DNA of 64,000 bases from a virus (lineage: Duplodnaviria > Caudoviricetes), in IMG/VR virus record IMGVR_UViG_3300032233_002382, positions 1 through 64,000 of that record, one strand, 5' to 3'. This document shows positions 1,621 to 22,006 of this stretch, piece after piece (position 1 is the first letter of the stretch; every line of letters begins with the position of its first letter). Below the pieces are notes generated by a model, which did not search any database, was not told the origin of the DNA, and worked only from the letters and a program-made list of their open reading frames with translations. The translations under genes were made by a program, and so were the position numbers.

Positions 1621-1940
1621 ACCTGGCTGTAGGATGCGACAAGTGCAAAATAAAAAACTACTGCGAAAAATACGGTAGCAGTCCGTTAGAGGTCAATAAT
1701 GTAAAATACCCATGTCATATAATTAACGGATATGGGCGCGAAGAGCTGCCCGCCTCAAAAGTCGGAAAATCTTCTAAAGACTGGTCCGAAAAAGGCAAAG
1801 CGCTAACCATTGTCGAACATCCCACAATAATAGATGAAATATTCCTATATGAAGTAATAAAGGTGTTTCACCCACCCATTAAACACGACCGAGAAAAGAA
1901 CATTAAGCCGCTCAGTTATCACCCAAAAAATCACAAATGA
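1617..1940 (+). CDS. Hypothetical Cys-containing protein
   Basis: 107 aa with CDKC...C...C; translationally coupled to the previous gene. Confidence 0.6.
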   Translation: MNLAVGCDKCKIKNYCEKYGSSPLEVNNVKYPCHIINGYGREELPASKVGKSSKDWSEKGKALTIVEHPTIIDEIFLYEVIKVFHPPIKHDREKNIKPLSYHPKNHK

Positions 1941-3235
1941 TCACCGATTGATATCGGGTCTACGGCCTGACACCACTGCATCAAATCAGGCAACACATCA
2001 TGGACTTTACGGTACATGTCGAATGCAATCCGTCGATAAGAAATATGGCCCTGCGGCTTAGTCCGAAGTTCCGTTAAATAGTATAGCTCCCGGAGATCCA
2101 TTCTGAAGAGCGATCGATGAAGATAACCCATTGGCACCATGTACTGATAGATCTCTGGATCGTTAACAACGGCATCGTTATCAAACGCCACGATCGACTC
2201 CATCGTGCGCTTGTATGTAGACTCGATTTCTGAATCTTTAAAATCATCGGGCGTTTCGTAGCCTATGTAAGGAGTCAAATATTCACTCCACTGTTCGCAG
2301 CGACGATGACGTTGAATATCTCTATAAGCGCCGTAGTCCATAGTAATGAGAAATTCTACATGGTGCCGCTTGAACACACTAGGAACCTGTGACTGCTTCC
2401 GTAAGGACATGTGACTACAAAACCGATCCCACGACATACCATATAACTCGAACACATGCGTTTTAAACTTCTCGAATGAATTTGTATCATAAGATATTAA
2501 ATCGACTCCAGAAACACATCTTGATGCCGGGACCGAGAAATTTGTAGTACGAATATCGAATAAGTCAGGCTCAGCATTTTTAATCAAGCTGGGCGTGATT
2601 TCAGATGCTGCTGCAAATACCTTTTCGCCAATTTCTCTAATCTCCGGATTTTGACTAGCTCGCGCTAAGCTCACCATATACCGAACATCCCGAAGATTCA
2701 TAACCGCAGCTAAATTGGTCCCCGTTCCCGCAGGTAGAAGATAACGTAGACTATCGTAAGCTCGAGCTCTGACTTTGGGTAAATTGCGACTTTTCTCGTC
2801 GTTCGGTAGATCCATGAGCTTACATGCGTTAGTTATAGACCAATCACACAGCCGATCATACTCTTCATAATATCGATTTATGAAATTCCGCACACTAGGA
2901 TCTTTGGTCGGATTTACGAACGAATCGCGAGAAAATTTCTGATACCTAGTGCTTTTCTCTGAATAACCGGCGCGTTGAAAAGATTCGATAAATTTAGAAG
3001 CAACCATACTTACGCCTTCAAAACATATGGGTATTACGCTCAACTCGGCCACGGAGCTATGACCGTAATTTATGACCCATTTCTCGTGGAACTTCTCCGA
3101 CTCTTCTCTTGAAAGAGAGTTCACTAATTCCACCGCTGAATCTGGCGACCTGGAGTATTTAGCCAGTACAGTTGCTTGTAAGGACGGGTGATAAAGCTTC
3201 CCATCTGAATCCTTAAGTACAAAAACGTTTGACAT
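1931..3235 (-). CDS. thyX: Flavin-dependent thymidylate synthase (long two-domain ThyX type)
   Basis: YGHSSVAE, SEKSTRY and YRDIQRHR motifs; 434 aa. Confidence 0.88.
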   Translation of the reverse strand: MSNVFVLKDSDGKLYHPSLQATVLAKYSRSPDSAVELVNSLSREESEKFHEKWVINYGHSSVAELSVIPICFEGVSMVASKFIESFQRAGYSEKSTRYQKFSRDSFVNPTKDPSVRNFINRYYEEYDRLCDWSITNACKLMDLPNDEKSRNLPKVRARAYDSLRYLLPAGTGTNLAAVMNLRDVRYMVSLARASQNPEIREIGEKVFAAASEITPSLIKNAEPDLFDIRTTNFSVPASRCVSGVDLISYDTNSFEKFKTHVFELYGMSWDRFCSHMSLRKQSQVPSVFKRHHVEFLITMDYGAYRDIQRHRRCEQWSEYLTPYIGYETPDDFKDSEIESTYKRTMESIVAFDNDAVVNDPEIYQYMVPMGYLHRSLFRMDLRELYYLTELRTKPQGHISYRRIAFDMYRKVHDVLPDLMQWCQAVDPISIGDHL

Positions 3236-3249
3236 GTTGAGGCTCCAGA

Positions 3250-3819
3250 ATGCCGATAGACGTCGAGAAAATACAGCAAAGAATCAACGAAATCAAAATC
3301 CCATTCATAAGAAGTCTTCACTCATTTGAAGGCATAGAAGAAACGTTCAAGCCATGGAAGCTTAATTTATCGCCATCGGCGCTGTACAACTGTTCGGTAG
3401 CCTGTAAAAAGGCGATGAAACTCAAGACCCCAGAAGTAAAATGGGTCAGCATTAAACGATGGGTTACGGTCACGCCCACAGGAATCGTGCTCCCTGAAGG
3501 TTGCTATCTATCGATAAAACGAAGAGAACATTTTGTAGCATCACCTAGCCCGAGACTAGAGAAACAGGATTTTATCTTAATAATGCTCCCATACGGGAAC
3601 GTTTGGTCACAAATCGAGCCAGATCGGCCCATTACCGAAGATTGGCTATGGTCCGAACTCGACGGAAAATTAGTATTTGAGCGACTAATCGATAAAGATG
3701 CAGTAAACCCCTTGAAGGGTTATTTCGCCGCCTGTAAAGATTATTTTGAGAAAAACCCCGATCAGATTGGAATCCACTTAAAGCGCAAAAAATCCATAGA
3801 ATCGACCACCGAAAAGTAG
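3250..3819 (+). CDS. Hypothetical protein
   Basis: 189-aa ORF ending at a strong hairpin. Confidence 0.7.
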   Translation: MPIDVEKIQQRINEIKIPFIRSLHSFEGIEETFKPWKLNLSPSALYNCSVACKKAMKLKTPEVKWVSIKRWVTVTPTGIVLPEGCYLSIKRREHFVASPSPRLEKQDFILIMLPYGNVWSQIEPDRPITEDWLWSELDGKLVFERLIDKDAVNPLKGYFAACKDYFEKNPDQIGIHLKRKKSIESTTEK

Positions 3820-3821
3820 AA

Positions 3822-3870
3822 ATATGAATGTGGGGATTTGCAATCAAGCCGCAAATCCCCACATTCATAT
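3822..3870. terminator. Bidirectional terminator hairpin
   Basis: 20-bp inverted repeat ATATGAATGTGGGGATTTGC / GCAAATCCCCACATTCATAT between convergent genes. Confidence 0.8.
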
Positions 3871-3878
3871 CATATCAT

Positions 3879-5054
3879 TTATTCTAAGTCGATGATTTCT
3901 TCATGGGACGCACCAGTGCCGATTAGCACAACCGGTACGTTTGCCGCCTCTTCTACCTTGCTAATGAAAGCTCTTGACTCTTTCGATAATTTCTCTAGTG
4001 CCTCTCTACCGCCCTTGATCCCGTTATCCTTCCAGTTAATGTACTGGATAAAATTAAGGCTGAGTTTGGTGGCACCGTTGACACGAACCGCATCCTGAAG
4101 CCCCAAAAAGCTGAAAGAGCAAACGCGCCGGATTCGCTTTGTAACGGTCGTCCGCTCGCGCTCGGCTAGAGCCTTCGCTTCCTCTGGAGGCATCCCAGAA
4201 TTACGAGCTACTTCTTCCCATGAAAGCTCCGTGCAGTCTGAATAAAAATCACCAGAATATCCCTTTTGCTGACCATCCTCGACAACGTTTCCTACGCGAA
4301 TAGGGAAAGTGCGAAGATTTAAATAGACATCGCCAACCATCGAAGGCGGAATCGCCATGTGATCCATAGCGGCCTGAACAGTGCAGTTACGGCTCGTGCA
4401 CTGGGGGTAGTGGCTCCCGTGGTCAATACTAAGAGCGTAGCCCTGGCTGCCTTCATGCAACCATGTTTCACCATGTTGAATAAAGCTGTGAGTCAGGTTA
4501 CGAAATTCCATCGCGTCCAGAACCGTAATGGACTGTAGCATTTCATCTGTGACCTGAACTCCGCCTTCAGTAAGCCACTGCTTCAAGGACGCGGAACCTG
4601 CGAGAGGCACATTAGACTTCCGCAATACTTTATCAGCAATCGCGGTTCCGGAGCCCTGCATGGTACTAGCTATGTGCTTAGTGCTTTCAGCGCCATCTCG
4701 CTCTCGAGCAGCATGACTCTCTAGTACTAAACTAGCTCGAGAATGAATGAAGAGCTTCGGGCGTCCACACTCTTCCCATTCCTTAATGAGCTGCTTCGGG
4801 TGAAATCCTGAACCTGGACTGATGAAGCCAATGATCCCCATGGACTTCTGCTTCTTAAGAGCTAAAGCTGTGGGGATCGCCTTAGCCACAAATTTCGTTC
4901 CATCGGGGAATAGAACAGAATGACCGGCATTCGGAAAATTCGAACTACTTACCTTCGTCACGTTATGCTTGTCGACTAGATAAGAAGAAATCTTACCCTT
5001 TCCGCTGCTCCCCCAGGCGGCATCCAAAATAACGTTGAACTTAGAGTTTTGCAT
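3879..5054 (-). CDS. purZ: PurZ-like 2-aminoadenylosuccinate synthetase (PurA superfamily)
   Basis: WGSSGKGK (Ser where PurA has Asp), PNAGH, EGSQG, RTFPIRVGN, ERTTVTKRIRR, and LNFIQY instead of PurA TKLD. Confidence 0.8.
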   Translation of the reverse strand: MQNSKFNVILDAAWGSSGKGKISSYLVDKHNVTKVSSSNFPNAGHSVLFPDGTKFVAKAIPTALALKKQKSMGIIGFISPGSGFHPKQLIKEWEECGRPKLFIHSRASLVLESHAARERDGAESTKHIASTMQGSGTAIADKVLRKSNVPLAGSASLKQWLTEGGVQVTDEMLQSITVLDAMEFRNLTHSFIQHGETWLHEGSQGYALSIDHGSHYPQCTSRNCTVQAAMDHMAIPPSMVGDVYLNLRTFPIRVGNVVEDGQQKGYSGDFYSDCTELSWEEVARNSGMPPEEAKALAERERTTVTKRIRRVCSFSFLGLQDAVRVNGATKLSLNFIQYINWKDNGIKGGREALEKLSKESRAFISKVEEAANVPVVLIGTGASHEEIIDLE

Positions 5055-5065
5055 TGGTTGGCCCT

Positions 5066-5851
5066 TTACCAGTTGTAGTGAGAAATTACATCGTCGATTT
5101 TAGCGTACAGAGCTTCGATCGTTCCGTCATTGACGACAATATGATGAAATTGCGAGTCCGGTATTTCGGTCTGTTCTATTTCAGATCGATGATTAAACGG
5201 CGGCTCCGTTATTTTCGGATGCTTAATACGAATAAAAATTGGCTCAGTTGTTCCGTCAGCCGCCTTTCTAGCCTCCTGAAATTCATGTTTGTGACGGAAA
5301 TCCGTAAAGACGGTCATAACCTTTTCCGGAGTGTCTGAGTTAGTTGTCGGAATTAACCCAAGCATTCGCGAATAGGCGAATCTTCCAGTCGCGATTTGCT
5401 TATGGATTTCGATGCCTTTTCTAACCCAAGAGTTTTCATACATAAGATTCATAAGTTCGCAGTACCTTTGTAACGCTTCTCTTGGAGACAGCCAGTATTT
5501 AGGGTCGTGCTGCCTGACCCAGACACGATCTTGGTCATCATCACCTTGATCGAAGCACCACCAAGGCACTGCGGCATCTACCCACTGATTCGACTCAGGT
5601 GTCAGTTCAGACGATATTCTAAATCTGGGAGGGTTGTTGGTCTTCGGGTATCTCAGGTCGCCAGCGTTTCGATTTCGGCTCGGCCCAAACAGTTGTGACT
5701 CTGTAAATCCATAAAGATCGGCCATATGGCGCTTCGCAGGATCAACTAAACCGGTTTGGATCGCCCCATATTTGGTGATCAAGCGCTTGGCGCTCTCGTC
5801 TTTCCCAACACCGGAGAATCCGGAAATGCAAACCATTAGATGTCGAGTCAC
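5066..5851 (-). CDS. Deoxynucleoside monophosphate kinase
   Basis: P-loop SGFSGVGKD, PAKR, SPREALQ, TDFRHKHE, HRSE and VVNDGTIEAL, the T4 gp1-like dNMP kinase pattern. Confidence 0.82.
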   Translation of the reverse strand: MTRHLMVCISGFSGVGKDESAKRLITKYGAIQTGLVDPAKRHMADLYGFTESQLFGPSRNRNAGDLRYPKTNNPPRFRISSELTPESNQWVDAAVPWWCFDQGDDDQDRVWVRQHDPKYWLSPREALQRYCELMNLMYENSWVRKGIEIHKQIATGRFAYSRMLGLIPTTNSDTPEKVMTVFTDFRHKHEFQEARKAADGTTEPIFIRIKHPKITEPPFNHRSEIEQTEIPDSQFHHIVVNDGTIEALYAKIDDVISHYNW

Positions 5852-8865: not shown

Positions 8866-11001
8866 ATGCCGACTTACGGAATTGTGCTAAGGTTGACTCA
8901 CACGGGCACAACAAATACATCCATCCCAATAAACGATGTCGCAATCGTAGAAAAAGGTTCTCCCATTTCTAAGAATGTCTACGTGCCCTTAAATGGCACT
9001 ATTGACCTGGCTTATGGAGGACTAGTTCCGTATTCTTTTGAAACGGGCACTATAAGATCGCTAATCAATGCAGGATTGGTAAACGCAACCATAATCCAGG
9101 GATCTGAATTTAGTTTTGGCCCAACTGGTCCAGCAGGAATCGATGGGCCAACGGGACCGCAAGGACAGATAGGACTCCCCGGTCAAACCGGACCAACAGG
9201 AAGTGCAGGTATACTTGGACCTGCTGGCCCTACAGGACTGGAAGGTCCAGCAGGTCCGACTGGTGGATCTGGAATCGAAGGACCTACAGGACCCACGGGA
9301 TTAAGTGCTACGCTTGGAGTAACTGCTGGAACCTACGGAGACGTTTCGAACATCCCTCAAATCACCGTCGACGTGAACGGTCAAATCACTTCCATCGTCG
9401 AACAGAACATTACTTCGACTAGCATTCTCACACTTTATGTCTCGAATGCTACTGGCAGTGATTCAAACGATGGGTTAACGCTTTTAACCCCTAAAAAATC
9501 AATTCAGGCGGCTGTCGACGCCGTAGGGTTATTTCTTGCGGCTGCTACCTCACCTAATGCGCACGCGACAATCAATGTAGCAGCACAGTCAACGGTTGAA
9601 GATTTTAACGTGACCGGAACTTATGCCGGGCGAGGATTGAACGCGAGCCCACTCGGCATTTTAATTCAGGGTGCAACTCCCACGATTTTATCGGGACCCC
9701 ACACACTTACCTCAGTGTCTTTAACCGACCCAGATAATACGGTTGTAGGATCCAACAATGGGGCTGAAGGAACAATCACAGTGCTCGGGGCTGGTTGGAC
9801 GGTTAACGCTTATGCCGGAAAATTCGTGCGGATCCAAGGCGGCGCAACAACAACATATGCTCCTATAAGTTCAAATACTTCAGACACATTGACGGTTATG
9901 CGACAAACGGGAGGTAGCCTAGGGTTTTCTGTAGGCAACACTATCGAAATCGTGCAGCCTTCTACCATCATGACTGGCGGGGTTGCAGTTAACTCTGCTA
10001 ATCTTCAGATTCGTGTCAACGATTTCCAAATAATAGGAACTGCTGGGACACCCCCGATTCGCACGATAGCGGCTGGAGTCTTAGGATTTAGTACATTTAA
10101 TCTACAACGCTGTATTATCGACTTCTCAGCTTATACTGGAGTAGGGTGGGCGTGCTCGAGTCAGATTCTTACGACTTGCCAAGTCGTGGCGGCTTTAGCT
10201 TTGCCTATAAACATGGTAATTGGAGTAGGCGGCATTTTCAGCGCATCTAGAACATATTTTAAGAACCTAGCTCGAATGGTATTAAGAGACTCAAGGTACT
10301 CGAGCTTTCTCTCTTGTGTTGTCGACGGACTTTCAAATGCGCAGGGGCTTGAACCGGGCGACGTTTGTAGAGCGCAGGGGTTTAAGTATAAAAACAATTC
10401 GGGACCGTTCGCGATTCGTGGAGAAGCGGGATTTGGTAACGGAAATAATCTTCAATCAGCATTGTTCACGAGTTCGGGAACGTCAGTTACCCATATCCTG
10501 TTGATAACGGCTAGCGGGTATAATCTCGAGGGCATAACGTTTATTAACGGAGCGATTGGAATTAACGCGACACTTGCGAGTCAAGCGAGCGGAATCGCAA
10601 CAACGCTAGCATTCTCTGGGACGCTAAATCCGATAGTGGCGGACGGAGCCAGCGCGGTTGCAGTTTCAGCCATCCAGGTGGGAACGGGCGCGACGACCGG
10701 GATTTCGGTGCTCGGGGCGAGCCGCTTGATTTGTGATGGAAATGTCGATTTCACGGGAACGACGAACCCGATCGTGCTTAGAGACGGGTCGACGCTTGTT
10801 ACGAGGGGAACGCTAAGCGGGACCGGAAATGTAGCACAACCGCTGGTGATCGTGAACGACGGTTCGAGGTTTGTGTGCGCGGCCACTCCAACGCTATCAG
10901 GCGGGTCGTCCGATTTAAGGTTCGACGGTACGACTAAAGCGTTCACCGACATGCCATTCGCAAACGCGGTTGGAAGCGCGGCTTCTGTGAGGAGCGCCTA
11001 A
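8866..11001 (+). CDS. Tail fibre/spike-like protein with collagen-like repeats and beta-helix-like C-terminus
   Basis: About 20 G-P-T/G-x-y triplets; YVSNATGSDSNDG...KSIQAAVD motif; G/A/T/V-rich C-terminal half. Confidence 0.7.
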   Translation: MPTYGIVLRLTHTGTTNTSIPINDVAIVEKGSPISKNVYVPLNGTIDLAYGGLVPYSFETGTIRSLINAGLVNATIIQGSEFSFGPTGPAGIDGPTGPQGQIGLPGQTGPTGSAGILGPAGPTGLEGPAGPTGGSGIEGPTGPTGLSATLGVTAGTYGDVSNIPQITVDVNGQITSIVEQNITSTSILTLYVSNATGSDSNDGLTLLTPKKSIQAAVDAVGLFLAAATSPNAHATINVAAQSTVEDFNVTGTYAGRGLNASPLGILIQGATPTILSGPHTLTSVSLTDPDNTVVGSNNGAEGTITVLGAGWTVNAYAGKFVRIQGGATTTYAPISSNTSDTLTVMRQTGGSLGFSVGNTIEIVQPSTIMTGGVAVNSANLQIRVNDFQIIGTAGTPPIRTIAAGVLGFSTFNLQRCIIDFSAYTGVGWACSSQILTTCQVVAALALPINMVIGVGGIFSASRTYFKNLARMVLRDSRYSSFLSCVVDGLSNAQGLEPGDVCRAQGFKYKNNSGPFAIRGEAGFGNGNNLQSALFTSSGTSVTHILLITASGYNLEGITFINGAIGINATLASQASGIATTLAFSGTLNPIVADGASAVAVSAIQVGTGATTGISVLGASRLICDGNVDFTGTTNPIVLRDGSTLVTRGTLSGTGNVAQPLVIVNDGSRFVCAATPTLSGGSSDLRFDGTTKAFTDMPFANAVGSAASVRSA

Positions 11002-13913: not shown

Positions 13914-14225
13914 GGAAATCGGCGGGGACCCCCGTTTTCCCCAGACACGCGTCTCCCCCACCAAGAAGGGTGGGCGGAAATCGGGGGTATGGATACGTAT
14001 AGGGGGGATATAGGGGGATAGGTATACCCCCGGCGGAGATCGGCCTGCGCCCCCGTCTCTTGGGTGTGGCGGCGCTGCTCTTGCGCCGCTGCGCTGGGGT
14101 GGGCGGGGGCGGGGCCGGAAATCGGCTGCCCCGCCCGTCTCAGGGGTGGGCGGCGGCGGGGTGGTCCCGTGGCGCAGCCCCCGGCTCGACCGGAAGTCGA
14201 GCGACCCGCCCGTCGGCGGGATGCG
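13914..14225 (+). promoter_or_regulatory. Four tandem GGARR-N14-CGTY promoter-like motifs
   Basis: Motifs begin at 13914, 14035, 14117 and 14192, upstream of 14276. Confidence 0.7.
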
Positions 14226-14275
14226 AGGGCGGCGCGGCGCCCCGCAATCACCAAGCCGCGCAGGAGCCGACCAGC

Positions 14276-14695
14276 ATGAGCAACGTGAACACGATCGTCA
14301 GCAAGCTCGCCACCATCATCCCGCCCGTCATCGCCGCCCCGCCCAGCTACCCGTTCGTGGGCAAGAACGCGGTCAAGGCGACCCTCCTCGCGAACACCGA
14401 GGTGCAGCACCTCACCCTGCAGCTCATGTACCTGCTGCAGACCGACGAGGAGCAGAAGGCCAAGGACACGGAGGTCCGCAACCGCTGCGGGTTCATGTCG
14501 TCCGACGCCTACACCGGCTCGCTCCTCGCGGAGAAGCTGCTGCTGGGCATGGAGCTGGAGGGCGAGGAGGTGGCCAAGGCGGAGCGCATCGCCACCAAGT
14601 ACAGCAAGCAGCTCTCGCAGCAGCTCGTCCGCCACGCCTGCGCGCAGGACGCCCGCCTCGCGGCCTACGCCATCACCTTCTCCATCAAGGTCTAG
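14276..14695 (+). CDS. Hypothetical protein, family A copy 1 (YHLQT.DEQ..NR.GFMSSDA..KY.KQ)
   Basis: GGAGCCGACC RBS; high GC3; paralogs at 21581 and 35990. Confidence 0.85.
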   Translation: MSNVNTIVSKLATIIPPVIAAPPSYPFVGKNAVKATLLANTEVQHLTLQLMYLLQTDEEQKAKDTEVRNRCGFMSSDAYTGSLLAEKLLLGMELEGEEVAKAERIATKYSKQLSQQLVRHACAQDARLAAYAITFSIKV

Positions 14696-14782
14696 TCGGT
14701 CGGGCGGTCCCCGCCCCCACCCCTGCGAGGGGGTGGGGGCGGTCGCGTTTTCGGGTGGAAAATCATTTCCAAGGAGGCGACG

Positions 14783-14941
14783 ATGCTGCGGCACTTCGTG
14801 TTCGGGTTCGGCGGGCTGTGCGTTCTGGGTGTGTGCTTCATCGGTGGTTCGCAGACCACCCTGCCGCTCGTGGCGGGTGGATTCCTCGAGGGGGCGGTCA
14901 TGGGCTGGATCGCCTACGCGGTCACCCGCCCCGCCACCTAA
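14783..14941 (+). CDS. Small membrane protein (52 aa, not in ORF track)
   Basis: AAGGAGG RBS; MLRHFVFGFGGLCVLGVCFIGG...; followed by a hairpin. Confidence 0.7.
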   Translation: MLRHFVFGFGGLCVLGVCFIGGSQTTLPLVAGGFLEGAVMGWIAYAVTRPAT

Positions 14942-15030
14942 GGCAGGTCAGTCCATTTGAGGCCGGATCCCATCGCGGGATCCGGCCTCATTCGTATATC
15001 GGGTGAACCCATTTAACGGAGGTATGGCAT

Positions 15031-15210
15031 ATGTTTCTGAAGTACGTGGCAGCATTTCTCGCAGTCATGGCCATGGGGGTCGTCCTCAGCGCCTTCTGGA
15101 TCTACGCGTACCTCTTGATCGAGAATGCCCACCTAGGTCTCATCAAGGGAGTGACCCGTTCGACGCGGGAATGGCTCTGGACGTTCCGGCTCCGCAAGTC
15201 CATGTACTGA
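15031..15210 (+). CDS. Small membrane protein (59 aa, not in ORF track)
   Basis: GGAGG RBS; MFLKYVAAFLAVMAMGVVLSAFWIYAYLL... Confidence 0.6.
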   Translation: MFLKYVAAFLAVMAMGVVLSAFWIYAYLLIENAHLGLIKGVTRSTREWLWTFRLRKSMY

Positions 15211-15229
15211 GATATACTACACATTTCGA

Positions 15230-15270
15230 AGATATCCCCCACCCATCATCGAGATGGGTGGGGGATATCT
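15230..15270. terminator. Inverted repeat, 18-bp stem
   Basis: AGATATCCCCCACCCATC-ATCGA-GATGGGTGGGGGATATCT. Confidence 0.6.
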
Positions 15271-16139
15271 GTTTCGGGCGGAAGGTGTGAACGAAACGGA
15301 ACCGGAAGCTCGATCGGTCCGTCGTCTGTTGGGTGTGGGGCGACGCTGCAGCGTTCGTTCCCGATATACTGGTGGGGTCGCGCCAGTATATGGCATAGGG
15401 TAGTGCGACCCATCCCCTCACTCCGCCGAGTGATGGCACTCAGCCCAAGGGAGCGTGAGCCGTCTGGCGAGTGGCAGCTCGTGAGCGGGATAGTCTGCCG
15501 GAAGGGTGGGTAGGGGGATATGAAACCAAACCCCCGGCCATATGGCTAAAGTCTGGTCGATATATTGTCGGCCTACCCCACCAGGACGCCCAAGGCCGCA
15601 AATGGGGCGCCAATATGAAGACAGGGCCGCCGACCCTGAACCCGAACCAAGGAGGCGCAAGTGCAGCTGGCTTTCGAGATCTTCACGATCGGCGTGACTT
15701 CGTTCGCTTTCGGGCAGGCCGCATCGTTCGTGATCGACGTCGTTCGAGATAGGTAGTATATCGAACGAACCCCTGGCAGGGGTTCGGCGTGGAATGCCAG
15801 TTCGGAAGGGAGCCCTCGCGCTTGAGGGGCGTACCTTGGTCGGCTCCGCCCTTAGGGTGGTTGGCTCCCGACCCCGAATTCCGGCGAAACCACCCGAACC
15901 CCGCCAGGGGTTATTTCGTTGTCGGGTATCTATATCAAAATAAATCTTCAAAGTATACCCTATACCTCAAAGGGGACCGGAGATCGCGCCTCGCGCCCGT
16001 CATATGGATGTGGGGCGGCAGACCTACGGCGCCTGGGCGGATGCCAGCCAGGGGGTAGGGACCCGTGATAGACCATTGTGCGGCGGGATGGAAATCCTGG
16101 GCGATGGGAGCAATTAACTGCAATAAAGGAGCCGACCAA

Positions 16140-19853: not shown

Positions 19854-20069
19854 TTAGGCCCTCTCCCCGACGAGGAACTGGATGCCCCTCACGAGGCAGA
19901 AGGGGAGCGCCATGCCCGCCGCGACGCTCGCGAGGCCCGCGACGTTCACCTGCCAAGCAGGAACCTGCTCGAAGCCGGGGCATGTCGCGACGGACATGAA
20001 GTGGCCGCCGAACATCACGATCGCGCCCACGGTCATGAGCTTCTGGATCTCGGTCTGCTTCTTCCACAT
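19854..20069 (-). CDS. Small two-TM protein
   Basis: Motif at 20132 (-); GGAGG RBS; two hydrophobic segments. Confidence 0.7.
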   Translation of the reverse strand: MWKKQTEIQKLMTVGAIVMFGGHFMSVATCPGFEQVPAWQVNVAGLASVAAGMALPFCLVRGIQFLVGERA

Positions 20070-20149
20070 GATAGAGCCTCCAAGGTCGGCAGGAGCGCCG
20101 CACCAAGGAGACGGAGAGAGTAACAGGTTTCCGGTTGGCTTTAGATGGC

Positions 20150-20452
20150 TTACTTCGATTCAGATTTTGACTCTAAATTATGGATTCGTGCTTCAAGTGG
20201 GGCGACTTTTATCGAAAGTTCTTCGACTTTTGAATTCAGTTTCTCGAGAGTCTTATCTAACTGGTCCATTGAACGCTTGAGCAGATATCCGATAAAACCG
20301 AGAGCCAGCGTGACGGCTAGCGACAACGCCCAAACAGGAATGACGACACCGCCTGGAACGGTCGGGCTTTGAGCGGCTGCGGCTTCTGCCAAGACGAGCG
20401 GCATGCCACCGACCACCGCGAGAGCCGAACCGATCAAGCTGGAATCTGACAT
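20150..20452 (-). CDS. Small membrane protein with coiled-coil tail (holin-like topology)
   Basis: Two hydrophobic segments then LDKTLEKLNSKVEEL. Confidence 0.5.
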   Translation of the reverse strand: MSDSSLIGSALAVVGGMPLVLAEAAAAQSPTVPGGVVIPVWALSLAVTLALGFIGYLLKRSMDQLDKTLEKLNSKVEELSIKVAPLEARIHNLESKSESK

Positions 20453-20577
20453 TCTTGTGCTCCCGATTCTTTCTTTGATCCGGTAATAAAAGGCTTTAAA
20501 CATGATGCTTAAAAATAATCCCAACAACGAATTAGCCCTCTAACGAGATAAACCCGTTAGAGGGCTAACACGTCGCG

Positions 20578-20805
20578 TTATCGGGTCTTGAGCCATATCG
20601 CGATCGTTGCGGTGTCGACCGAGATGATCTCCTTCATCTCGACCTTATGGAAGGCCACCCACTCGGCGAACCCTTCGCGCCCCGAGGTGGTGTTCGGGAA
20701 TGTCATGGTCCCGAGGAGTGTTCCCTCCTCCGTCTTCAGCGGGAGATCGACCTCGCCGTTCGCGTGGAACGTCATCGTCGACTCCACCATTCGCCAGCCC
20801 ATCAT
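20578..20805 (-). CDS. Hypothetical early-type protein
   Basis: Motif at 20867 (-); GGAGG RBS. Confidence 0.7.
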   Translation of the reverse strand: MMGWRMVESTMTFHANGEVDLPLKTEEGTLLGTMTFPNTTSGREGFAEWVAFHKVEMKEIISVDTATIAIWLKTR

Positions 20806-20955
20806 GCTCGCCTCCGAATGCGCGTCCATCGCGCCCACCAGATGGACGAACAGACGGTCTGGTTTCCGCTCGTCTTGGTTTTAGCCAGGTACTTTTAAAG
20901 TAGATCCCTGGTTTGCGAACTGGGAATGGGCGTTGAGGCCCATTCCCAGTCGTGA

Positions 20956-21171
20956 CTAACCCATTCGGCTCAAGAGCTCCTTGCCGGTGGGCGTGGTCGT
21001 CAAGGTGTATCCCTTGCGCTCCACCAGCCGCAGCTCGACCATCTTGCTCACGAGCCGGTCGTACTGGTCGAGGCTCACCCCGTGCCCTTGGAAGGCCAGG
21101 AAGAGCGGCCCTTCGGGCGCGTTGCCGCCAGAACCCTCAATCGTCTCGAGCACCGCCTTGATGATCTCCAA
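20956..21171 (-). CDS. Small winged-HTH-like protein
   Basis: Motif at 21232 (-); LVSKMVELRLVERKG..YTLTTTPTGKELL resembles a wHTH wing. Confidence 0.55.
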   Translation of the reverse strand: MEIIKAVLETIEGSGGNAPEGPLFLAFQGHGVSLDQYDRLVSKMVELRLVERKGYTLTTTPTGKELLSRMG

Positions 21172-21580
21172 GCTCGCCTCCTCGCGGCACCAGCGCCGCC
21201 CACCAAGGAGACGACAGTCCGAGCTGATCTCCGCCGGACTTTAAAAGGGATGTTCAAAACGAATGGTCTGTCTCAAAGGGGACCGGAAGCTGGCGGGCCG
21301 TCGCGTCTGTTGGGTGCGGCGGCGGTGGTGCCGCACGGCGGCGCGGCGGAGATTGGGCTGCGGCGGCGTCGGTTGGGTGCGGACGACGCGAGTCGGCGGG
21401 GATTGAGCGACAGCCCCGTGTCTCGTAGGCTCCGATGGTCTGGCAATGTGCGTCCTGATGGAAATCGGGGGCATTGTCTTTCGGCAGCGTCGGGTGGTCC
21501 GACGTGAATCCGGAAACCGGTGAATCCCGCCGTCCATGGGATGGGAAGCGTCCCCCTGAGTGACGCATGGAGCCGACCAA

Positions 21581-22006
21581 ATGAACCACTTCAACTCGAT
21601 CGACACCGTCATGGCGTTCGTGGCGGAGAAGCTGCCGCCGGTCATCGCCGCGCCCCCGGCCTACCCCTTCATCGGGGAGAAGGCGGTCCGCGCCGCCCTG
21701 CAGAGCGACTACGACCTGCAGGAGGCGGTGCTCGTCATGCTCTACCACCTGCAGACGCAGGACGAGCAGGCGACCCGCGACACGAAGACCAAGAACCGGG
21801 CGGGCTTCATGAGCAGCGACGCCTTCCACGGCACCCGCATCGCGGAGGCGCTCGTCCTGGGCCTCTGCCTCGAGCACGAGGACATCGAGCGGGTGCAGCG
21901 CATCGCGACCAAGTACGCCAAGCAGACCACGGTCCAGCTCAGGCGGGTGGCGATGCAGCAGGATGCCCGTCTGGCGGCCTACGCCACGGTCTTCAGCATC
22001 AAGTAG
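21581..22006 (+). CDS. Family A copy 2
   Basis: Three promoter motifs upstream (21285, 21348, 21512); GGAGCCGACC RBS. Confidence 0.85.
   Translation: MNHFNSIDTVMAFVAEKLPPVIAAPPAYPFIGEKAVRAALQSDYDLQEAVLVMLYHLQTQDEQATRDTKTKNRAGFMSSDAFHGTRIAEALVLGLCLEHEDIERVQRIATKYAKQTTVQLRRVAMQQDARLAAYATVFSIK

Follow-up and report, generated by a model that had tools for sequence, protein, structure and literature searches.

Can a phage with a very large genome make 2-aminoadenine (Z) and build it into its DNA in place of adenine? The question is raised by one gene near the start of a Caudoviricetes record in IMG/VR (IMGVR_UViG_3300032233_002382). The stretch that we analyzed first, referred to here as the window, comprises the first 64 kb (64,000 nucleotides) of this record, which is a single 307,777-bp virus contig with no terminal repeats and a CheckV completeness of 72%. 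Among sequencing runs, a search located this DNA in the probable source run alone, as contigs. On the minus strand at 3879..5054 lies an open reading frame (ORF) with an ATG start that encodes a 391-amino-acid (aa) protein. A sequence-only reading of the window had taken this protein to be PurZ, which converts deoxyguanosine monophosphate (dGMP) to succino-amino-deoxyadenylate (dSMP), rather than the adenylosuccinate synthetase PurA. It had placed the gene in a large phage, which the size of the contig bears out, and had thought a high-GC host probable. The latter finds no support, as the GC content of the contig is 46.4% and only local stretches reach 64%, which is probably where the idea came from.

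We find that the gene is a candidate succino-amino-deoxyadenylate synthase gene of a divergent huge-phage subfamily. Our evidence comes from homology, the clade into which the protein falls, the states of key residues, the modeled fold, the genes present and their operon layout, and conservation among related huge phages. From the sequence evidence, the 391-aa protein is very probably a PurZ that uses dGMP.

The 391-aa protein falls with PurZ, apart from PurA

With 121.6 bits for PF00709, the protein clearly belongs to the adenylosuccinate synthetase superfamily, and its motif matches therefore reflect homology and not chance. The ORF is real, and it contains all three motifs quoted in the sequence-only reading, namely GSSGKG (residues 15-20), ERTTVTKRIRR (residues 300-310) and LNFIQY (residues 333-338). 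They align with GDEGKG, EFGATTGRRRR and LTKLDV of Escherichia coli PurA, as had been claimed. Relative to the E. coli enzyme, Asp13 is replaced by Ser16, the Gly before the TT pair by Thr302, Lys331 by Phe335 and Asp333 by Gln337.

To which branch of the superfamily does the protein belong? Its best PHROG is phrog_1211 (PurZ; 4.6e-59), and its best NCBIfam model is that of PurZ (NF038379, 194.2 bits), while the PurA model TIGR00184 gives 143 bits against a cut-off of 396. A sequence search of the PDB ended in a near tie. The top raw score went to the short archaeal PurA of Pyrococcus horikoshii (5k7x, 2d7u; 113.6 bits), which shares the same compact architecture and belongs to the NF003295 family, and the PurZ enzymes of phages phiVC8 and S-2L reached 110.9 bits. 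Identity to any PurZ from a phage in GenBank is at most 35%. For this protein, raw similarity alone cannot separate PurZ from PurA. The scores mark it as a divergent relative; hence, we judged its membership by tree and by residues.

Trees were built from 150 representatives of a search of 1.84 billion proteins, close family members, and references taken from annotated records (phiVC8 PurZ, S-2L PurZ, PurZ0 of Gordonia phage Archimedes and E. coli PurA). We also included 15 archaeal PurAs, nine short and six long, which were found through a match to an archaeal 16S primer followed by a PF00709 search of the genomes. Two trees were made, one of 146 rows and a careful one of 59 rows. In both, the proteins with Ser in the P-loop (Ser-type proteins) formed one clade (ultrafast bootstrap 100, Shimodaira-Hasegawa-like approximate likelihood ratio test 99) that excluded all 16 PurAs, and Archimedes PurZ0 branched at its base. 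The 391-aa protein fell into an inner clade together with phiVC8 and S-2L PurZ (96/94). Its own subclade was well supported (100/95 in the 59-row tree, 98 in the 146-row tree) and distinct from the subclade of the characterized enzymes. Forcing the huge-phage subclade to join the PurAs cost 44.4 log-likelihood units and gave P = 0.028 in the approximately unbiased (AU) test, a value that is indicative only, since the tested group was chosen after the tree was seen. The alignment and tree comparison proposed in the sequence-only reading thus places the protein with S-2L and phiVC8 PurZ rather than with PurZ0 or PurA. The nine short archaeal PurAs, for all their similarity in architecture, lie outside the Ser-type clade (100/99); all nine have Asp in the P-loop and Gly or Ala at the site of Thr302, and none has the Phe/Tyr pocket described below.

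PurZ-type residues and a modeled fold closest to PurZ

Twelve positions have been reported to separate PurZ on dZ-modified contigs from PurA, and the S14D mutation to abolish the selectivity of PurZ (bioRxiv 10.1101/2025.10.22.683976). Eight of the twelve are identical between phiVC8 PurZ and the 391-aa protein: S14 (Ser16 here), T262 (Thr302), F295 (Phe335), Y298 (Tyr338), P233, Y244, W252 and S273. The other four (F12, which is Trp here, I34, P144 and G256) differ. All 16 PurAs have Asp at the site of the P-loop Ser and Gly or Ala at that of Thr302. None has the Phe/Tyr pair: the Phe335 site is occupied in them by Lys, Gly, His or Arg, and the Tyr338 site by Val, Lys, Arg and others.

Residues known from the S-2L enzyme tell the same story. 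Its PurZ-specific substrate contacts S23, T273 and Q308 (PMC8342488) correspond to identical residues, Ser16, Thr302 and Gln337, in the 391-aa protein. By the roles that the two papers assign to these residues, an ATP-type base pocket formed by Phe335, Gln337 and Tyr338 replaces the GTP-reading Lys331/Asp333 pair of PurA. In S-2L PurZ, a loop insertion beside a conserved Val has been described as crowding the C2' of the sugar (PMC8342488); the 391-aa protein likewise has an insertion after the conserved Val of its IRVGN strand (VGNVVEDGQQKGYSG). Conservation extends well beyond this one phage. We retrieved 269 homologues, and in all 224 whose P-loop was detectable by pattern the critical residue was Ser, never Asp. 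Across 38 family members W14-G-S-S-G-K-G, T302-T-V-T-K and N334-F-x-Q-Y were invariant. Together with the two trees and the AU test, these discriminating residues uphold the view that the protein is of the PurZ type and not PurA.

We then modeled the protein with AlphaFold2 on the family alignment. The model had a mean predicted local distance difference test score of 84.1 and a predicted template-modeling (TM) score of 0.87, with two low-confidence loops at residues 129-134 and 205-222. The five best Foldseek matches of this model in the PDB were structures of phiVC8 PurZ (6fko, 6fm1 and 6tnh, with ATP and dGMP) and S-2L PurZ (7odx), followed by P. horikoshii PurA; PurZ0 (7vf6) ranked 18th. 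By target length, the TM score of the model was about 0.8 against both PurZ and PurA structures.

Candidate partner genes lie elsewhere on the contig

If the 391-aa protein is PurZ, does the phage encode the rest of a Z pathway? No DatZ, MazZ or DpoZ had been recognized in the window, and for the window this stands. Beyond it, profile searches of the contig found a tight operon of four plus-strand genes at 136,825-140,551, which encodes an HD-domain protein, a MazG-like protein, an inosine monophosphate (IMP) dehydrogenase and a GMP synthase. The contig thus holds a DatZ/YfbR-family HD hydrolase and a MazG-like enzyme at 136.8-138.0 kb, and its PolA is not DpoZ. When S-2L DatZ, MazZ and PrimPol were used as tblastn queries against the contig, the only match was a weak one to DatZ (E value of 0.016), with none for MazZ.

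The first gene of the operon (136,825-137,454) encodes a YfbR-like HD protein of the DatZ/YfbR family (PF12917, 69.6 bits; PF13023 [HD_3], 35.6 bits), for which the best PHROG is phrog_7076, "dATP triphosphohydrolase" (2.9e-20). At the positions of W20 (sugar) and I22 (adenine) of S-2L DatZ it has Tyr and Ser, as do six of six relatives. A Y20-T/S22 pair is prevalent in YfbR-like proteins of dZ-enriched contigs (bioRxiv 10.1101/2025.10.22.683976), which by analogy is suggestive of a DatZ-like role for the HD protein. The second gene (137,463-137,963) begins 8 nucleotides (nt) after the first and encodes a MazG-like pyrophosphatase (PF12643; phrog_229, 5.9e-07) with the usual acidic ExxE...ExxD pattern. 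The MazG family PF03819 and PF04447 (DUF550; MazZ-2) had no match in the approximately 72%-complete contig.

The third gene overlaps the MazG-like gene by 4 nt and encodes a 355-aa IMP dehydrogenase (GuaB) that lacks the CBS insert (TIGR01302, 434 bits). We considered whether it might instead be a GMP reductase, which would drain GMP, and rejected this identity (434 bits versus at most 205 bits). The fourth gene abuts it and encodes the GMP synthase GuaA (NF000848, 704 bits). An adenylosuccinate lyase, PurB, is encoded on the plus strand at 81,477-82,775 (TIGR00928, 447 bits, above the cut-off). PurC (SAICAR synthase) is absent from the contig and from seven related genomes, and for this reason we rejected the idea that PurB belongs to a set for de novo purine synthesis. 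PurB has another reaction, in which it takes fumarate off a succinyl-purine nucleotide, and this is the step that comes next after PurZ. Close copies of PurB were seen in some relatives only (G003, G007, G008, G012 and G022).

The contig further encodes a ribonucleotide reductase and a dCTP deaminase. The latter is the one dUTPase-superfamily protein that we saw, although no search was aimed at DutZ. Next to purZ on the minus strand is a gene for a deoxynucleoside monophosphate (dNMP) kinase (5066..5851; phrog_139, 3.1e-26; Pfam DNMK, 27.1 bits, at the cut-off), whose stop codon is 11 nt upstream of the purZ start. It is a candidate dZMP/dGMP kinase. A dNMP kinase gene was not found beside purZ in related loci. 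Finally, a general 949-aa PolA with a 3'-5' exonuclease domain is encoded on the minus strand at 147,401-150,250. No match to DNA_pol_B (PF00136), DUF5664 (PF18909) or NDT (PF05014) was found in the contig, which is about 72% complete.

As an aside, the best match of this PolA among GenBank phages is in a 485-kb uncultured phage (LR745208.1), at 35% identity, and is split into four pieces, which suggests that the polymerase gene there contains inteins. LR745208.1 has no PurZ-like match. The replication and nucleotide region of our contig (126-156 kb) also codes for RecA, two sigma-70-like proteins, a ferritin-like protein, a pyroglutamyl peptidase, a carbon-nitrogen hydrolase, DnaJ, a DnaG-type zinc-ribbon protein and a DnaB-like helicase.

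Homologues occur in other huge phages

At 63-81% identity to the 391-aa protein there are more than 120 clusters of homologues (clustering threshold of 90% identity), 12 of which include contigs of 200-445 kb. Where the homologues have a public name, it is "adenylosuccinate synthetase." In IMG/VR we located 47 loci with a PurZ homologue. All eight of the terminal-repeat genomes that carry one are 356-436 kb long.

Five of the terminal-repeat genomes (363-436 kb) have a PurZ that is at least 59% identical; in each of them, as well as in a 257-kb fragment, the HD and MazG-like genes are adjacent. The HD subfamily occurs on 13 IMG/VR contigs. Six of these bear PurZ (257-436 kb), and most of the others are fragments whose source samples include a PurZ-bearing fragment too.

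In some PurZ homologues, intein-sized insertions of about 350-450 aa interrupt the protein at two sites in catalytic motifs, the first (site A) just after NAGH (residue 45) and the second near YPxC/TSRN (residues 219-229). The interrupted homologues are P0121, P0122, P0124, P0130, P0131, P0141, P0142, P0148, P0153 and P0244, along with those at loci L025:1621-4071 and L051:1576-3993. P0124 (1,197 aa) has both insertions, and in some of the site-A inserts the last residues are HN, with Ser, Thr or Cys next.

A possible route to Z-containing DNA

How might these genes work together? In the pathway that we propose, phage GuaB and GuaA would pull IMP towards GMP, and the phage ribonucleotide reductase, with host kinases, would carry this on to dGDP and dGTP. 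The MazG-like enzyme, or normal turnover, would supply dGMP. PurZ would then make dSMP, from which phage PurB would remove fumarate to give dZMP, and the dNMP kinase encoded beside purZ could act with host kinases to raise dZMP to dZTP. The deoxyadenylate pool would be lowered by the DatZ/YfbR-family HD hydrolase, and by PurZ too if it uses dATP. Phage PolA, which is not DpoZ, would build DNA with Z in place of most or all of the A. What we infer are all the substrate specificities, the sequence in which the steps occur, and that virion DNA contains Z. A genome of Z, T, G and C (ZTGC) draws both of its purines from guanylate, which would explain why the phage carries guaB and guaA. Judged from the sequence, this phage probably has a PurZ pathway that works and a genome that is largely ZTGC.

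We also favor, with less assurance, an extension of this proposal to the whole uncultivated lineage of huge phages, whose terminal-repeat genomes measure 356-436 kb and which comprises at least two PurZ sublineages. Its members would have ZTGC DNA made by an extended, largely self-sufficient route that draws on GuaB-GuaA, PurZ, PurB and the dNMP kinase; their DatZ would be a Tyr/Ser variant and their PolA an ordinary one, and some of them would clear dATP by other means.

Points against a Z genome and rival explanations

Several observations weigh against the pathway proposed above. Some of them, the PurZ-model score below the cut-off, the similar score on the archaeal PurA model and Trp14, concern the 391-aa protein itself and are given with the PurA-like explanation below. 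Those that concern the partner genes begin with the HD protein, which lacks the W20/I22 pair of S-2L DatZ and in a PDB search scores 35 bits against E. coli YfbR and 15 bits against S-2L DatZ. Because it is closer to YfbR than to DatZ and lacks that pair, it may be a dNMP nucleotidase rather than a dATPase. In Pfam, the MazG-like protein falls just short of the cut-off (PF12643, 26.6 bits versus 27), and in a weak alignment it lacks the Asp60 with which S-2L MazZ reads the N2 of guanine. PolA falls far short of the DpoZ models (NF038380, 60 bits versus a cut-off of 500; NF038381, 39 bits versus 350). PurB, GuaB and GuaA would also fit a plain set for purine interconversion.

The distribution of the partners is uneven as well. 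A complete 315-kb genome (G022, locus L051), whose PurZ is 62% identical and intein interrupted, has no detectable HD, HD_3, DUF550 or MazG-like partner, and no such partner was detected either in a sublineage of 354-395 kb genomes whose PurZ identity is 41-45%. Five PurZ-bearing genomes that are 98-100% complete lack detectable YfbR-like/HD_3, DUF550 and MazG-like genes: G014 (371 kb, L035), G017 (395 kb, L040), G020 (356 kb, L047), G023 (354 kb, L053) and G022. Moreover, co-occurrence of these genes within one phage lineage is conservation and not independent functional evidence, because kin share genes.

Could PurZ be active, then, without the genome being largely ZTGC? Z might replace adenine only partly or only at some stage, or Z nucleotides might serve otherwise, as a poison of host replication or as a precursor, in a phage that has neither a Z-selective polymerase nor a proven dATPase. 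The ordinary PolA, the YfbR-like affinities of the HD protein and the several related complete genomes that lack both helpers all fit this explanation. However, PMC8342488 describes S-2L DNA as fully Z-substituted even though S-2L lacks DpoZ, and it reports that the datZ-mazZ-purZ triad of S-2L suffices to put Z into E. coli DNA. The phage-encoded GuaB, GuaA, PurB and dNMP kinase, moreover, suggest a bulk flux and not a trace product. We therefore regard partial or incidental use of Z as unlikely.

A second explanation is that the protein acts as a PurA-like auxiliary metabolic enzyme, which would convert IMP to adenylosuccinate and, with PurB, GuaB and GuaA, serve both the AMP and GMP branches in a phage with canonical DNA. 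The public name of the protein and its relatives agrees with this, as does the presence of PurB, IMP dehydrogenase and GMP synthase in the genome. The family models leave room for it too. The 391-aa protein falls below the curated cut-off of the PurZ model NF038379 (194.2 versus 300 bits), which both phiVC8 PurZ (397 bits) and Archimedes PurZ0 (325 bits) pass, and the archaeal PurA model NF003295 gives it 186 bits, close to its PurZ-model score, against a cut-off of 368. In addition, F12 of phiVC8 PurZ is Trp14 in the 391-aa protein, as in E. coli and many other PurAs. This position varies within the Ser-type clade, however; it is Tyr in S-2L PurZ and Trp in 59 of 114 Ser-type representatives. 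Against the PurA-like explanation, the catalytic Asp13 is Ser here and in every homologue with a detectable P-loop, and the GTP-reading Lys and Asp are replaced by Phe and Gln, with Tyr, as in the ATP-using PurZ enzymes. Both trees place the protein within PurZ, apart from the 16 PurAs, and the AU test disfavors a grouping with them. Finally, a DatZ-family HD hydrolase would oppose a gene set meant to boost adenylate. A PurA-like role is therefore quite improbable.

That the enzyme works on a third substrate pair not yet described, such as GMP or some other 6-oxopurine nucleotide, and yields a product other than dSMP is very improbable: the subfamily is divergent, with four insertions relative to phiVC8 PurZ, scores below every curated family cut-off and low model confidence in the two loops at 129-134 and 205-222, but all reported contacts to dGMP at its 2-amino group and to the adenine of ATP are conserved, and the S-2L-like insertion beside the conserved Val is present.

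Comparison with known Z systems

We conclude that a dGMP-using PurZ remains the best description of the 391-aa protein, and we compared it with the characterized enzymes. It shares the P-loop Ser, the TTVTK loop, the NFxQY/NFxNY ATP pocket and the inner clade with phiVC8 PurZ (DgsS) and S-2L PurZ, and its modeled fold is the same. It differs from them in sequence (29-32% identity) and in length (391 versus 343-359 aa). Four insertions set it apart from phiVC8 PurZ. One of about 25 aa lies near residues 155-180, another lengthens the loop at 256-267, a third adds 13 aa at 284-296, and the fourth is a C-terminal segment resembling that of archaeal PurA and PurZ0. The carriers differ as well. The sequence-only reading held that Z phages are mostly smaller siphoviruses and podoviruses, and searchable papers and GenBank records agree, with phages of the phiVC8/S-2L type and other GenBank carriers of PurZ at about 38-85 kb; the terminal-repeat carriers found here are 356-436 kb.

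Archimedes PurZ0 (gp50; 7vf6) is like the 391-aa protein in its Ser-type P-loop, TTVT loop, length and C-terminal segment. It keeps, however, a PurA-like NTP pocket (SMADQ, with Asp) where the 391-aa protein has NFIQY, and it lies outside the inner clade. PurZ0 phages use the dUTPase-like DutZ, DmtZ and DUF5664 (PMC12884076), and DUF5664, as noted above, was not found on this contig.

The Z cluster of S-2L, datZ-mazZ-purZ (PMC8342488), contains the same three enzyme families that we find in this one genome, where the HD and MazG-like genes are likewise adjacent. Unlike in S-2L, purZ here lies about 132 kb away from that pair, the HD protein is of the Tyr/Ser type, the MazG-like protein is not detectably MazZ-1 or MazZ-2, the operon runs on into guaB-guaA, and the phage has its own purB.

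At least seven groups of Z phages have been described, from Pseudomonadota, Cyanobacteriota and Actinomycetota (PMC12884076). The open papers on Z phages that we searched mention neither jumbo phages nor phage-borne GMP synthesis, and a search of the open literature, with subscription papers outside its scope, found nothing relevant that pairs PurZ or 2-aminoadenine with jumbo phages, huge phages or megaphages. Two overviews of jumbo phages mention neither adenylosuccinate synthetase nor 2-aminoadenine, and a 2026 review of jumbo phages gives uracil, deazaguanine and acyl-adenine as the only DNA modifications. In the jumbo Listeria phage LPJP1 the DNA is believed to contain uracil, and the paper on it cites work on Z in passing only. 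Measured against this open literature, PurZ chemistry is known; what is new is the subfamily, its huge-phage carriers and a gene set that joins GuaB, GuaA, PurB, a Tyr/Ser HD protein and a PolA that is not DpoZ.

If the proposal is correct, these phages would have by far the largest natural genomes with a noncanonical base. A Z-substituted lineage would mean that bases can be replaced in genomes as large as about 430 kb and with a polymerase that is not DpoZ, and that the phage supplies GuaB, GuaA and PurB, which open accounts of the pathway leave to the host. More than 120 clusters labeled "adenylosuccinate synthetase" would be misnamed in public data. Recovery of such phages would also be biased, as Z-DNA responds differently to restriction-based methods and to some that use native DNA.

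The purZ locus and other features of the window

In the ORF map, purZ closes a run of minus-strand genes. Directly 3' of its stop codon is a terminator-like hairpin on the minus strand (3823..3869), found in a promoter/terminator scan, with 20 bp and a T-rich tail; it matches the consensus and is a putative terminator. The hairpin lies between purZ and a convergent plus-strand ORF of 189 aa (3250..3819). Next comes a minus-strand gene for a ThyX-type flavin-dependent thymidylate synthase (1931..3235; PF02511, 127 bits; TIGR02170, 54.8 bits, below the cut-off of 87.9).

This arrangement is conserved. Among the 23 related IMG/VR loci whose PurZ identity is at least 54%, 17 keep thyX within 3 kb of purZ and retain the order purZ, 189-aa ORF, thyX, with copies of the ORF that are 36-64% identical in the same position. 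The ORF had no match in Pfam, PHROGs, NCBIfam or the ESM Atlas, and it may be an unrecognized part of a nucleotide module.

Elsewhere in the window, the 711-aa product of a plus-strand gene at 8866-11001 contains collagen triple-helix repeats and matches PHROGs of phage tail fibers. Local GC content reaches 60-64% at 14001-16000 and 20001-22000, against the contig average of 46%.

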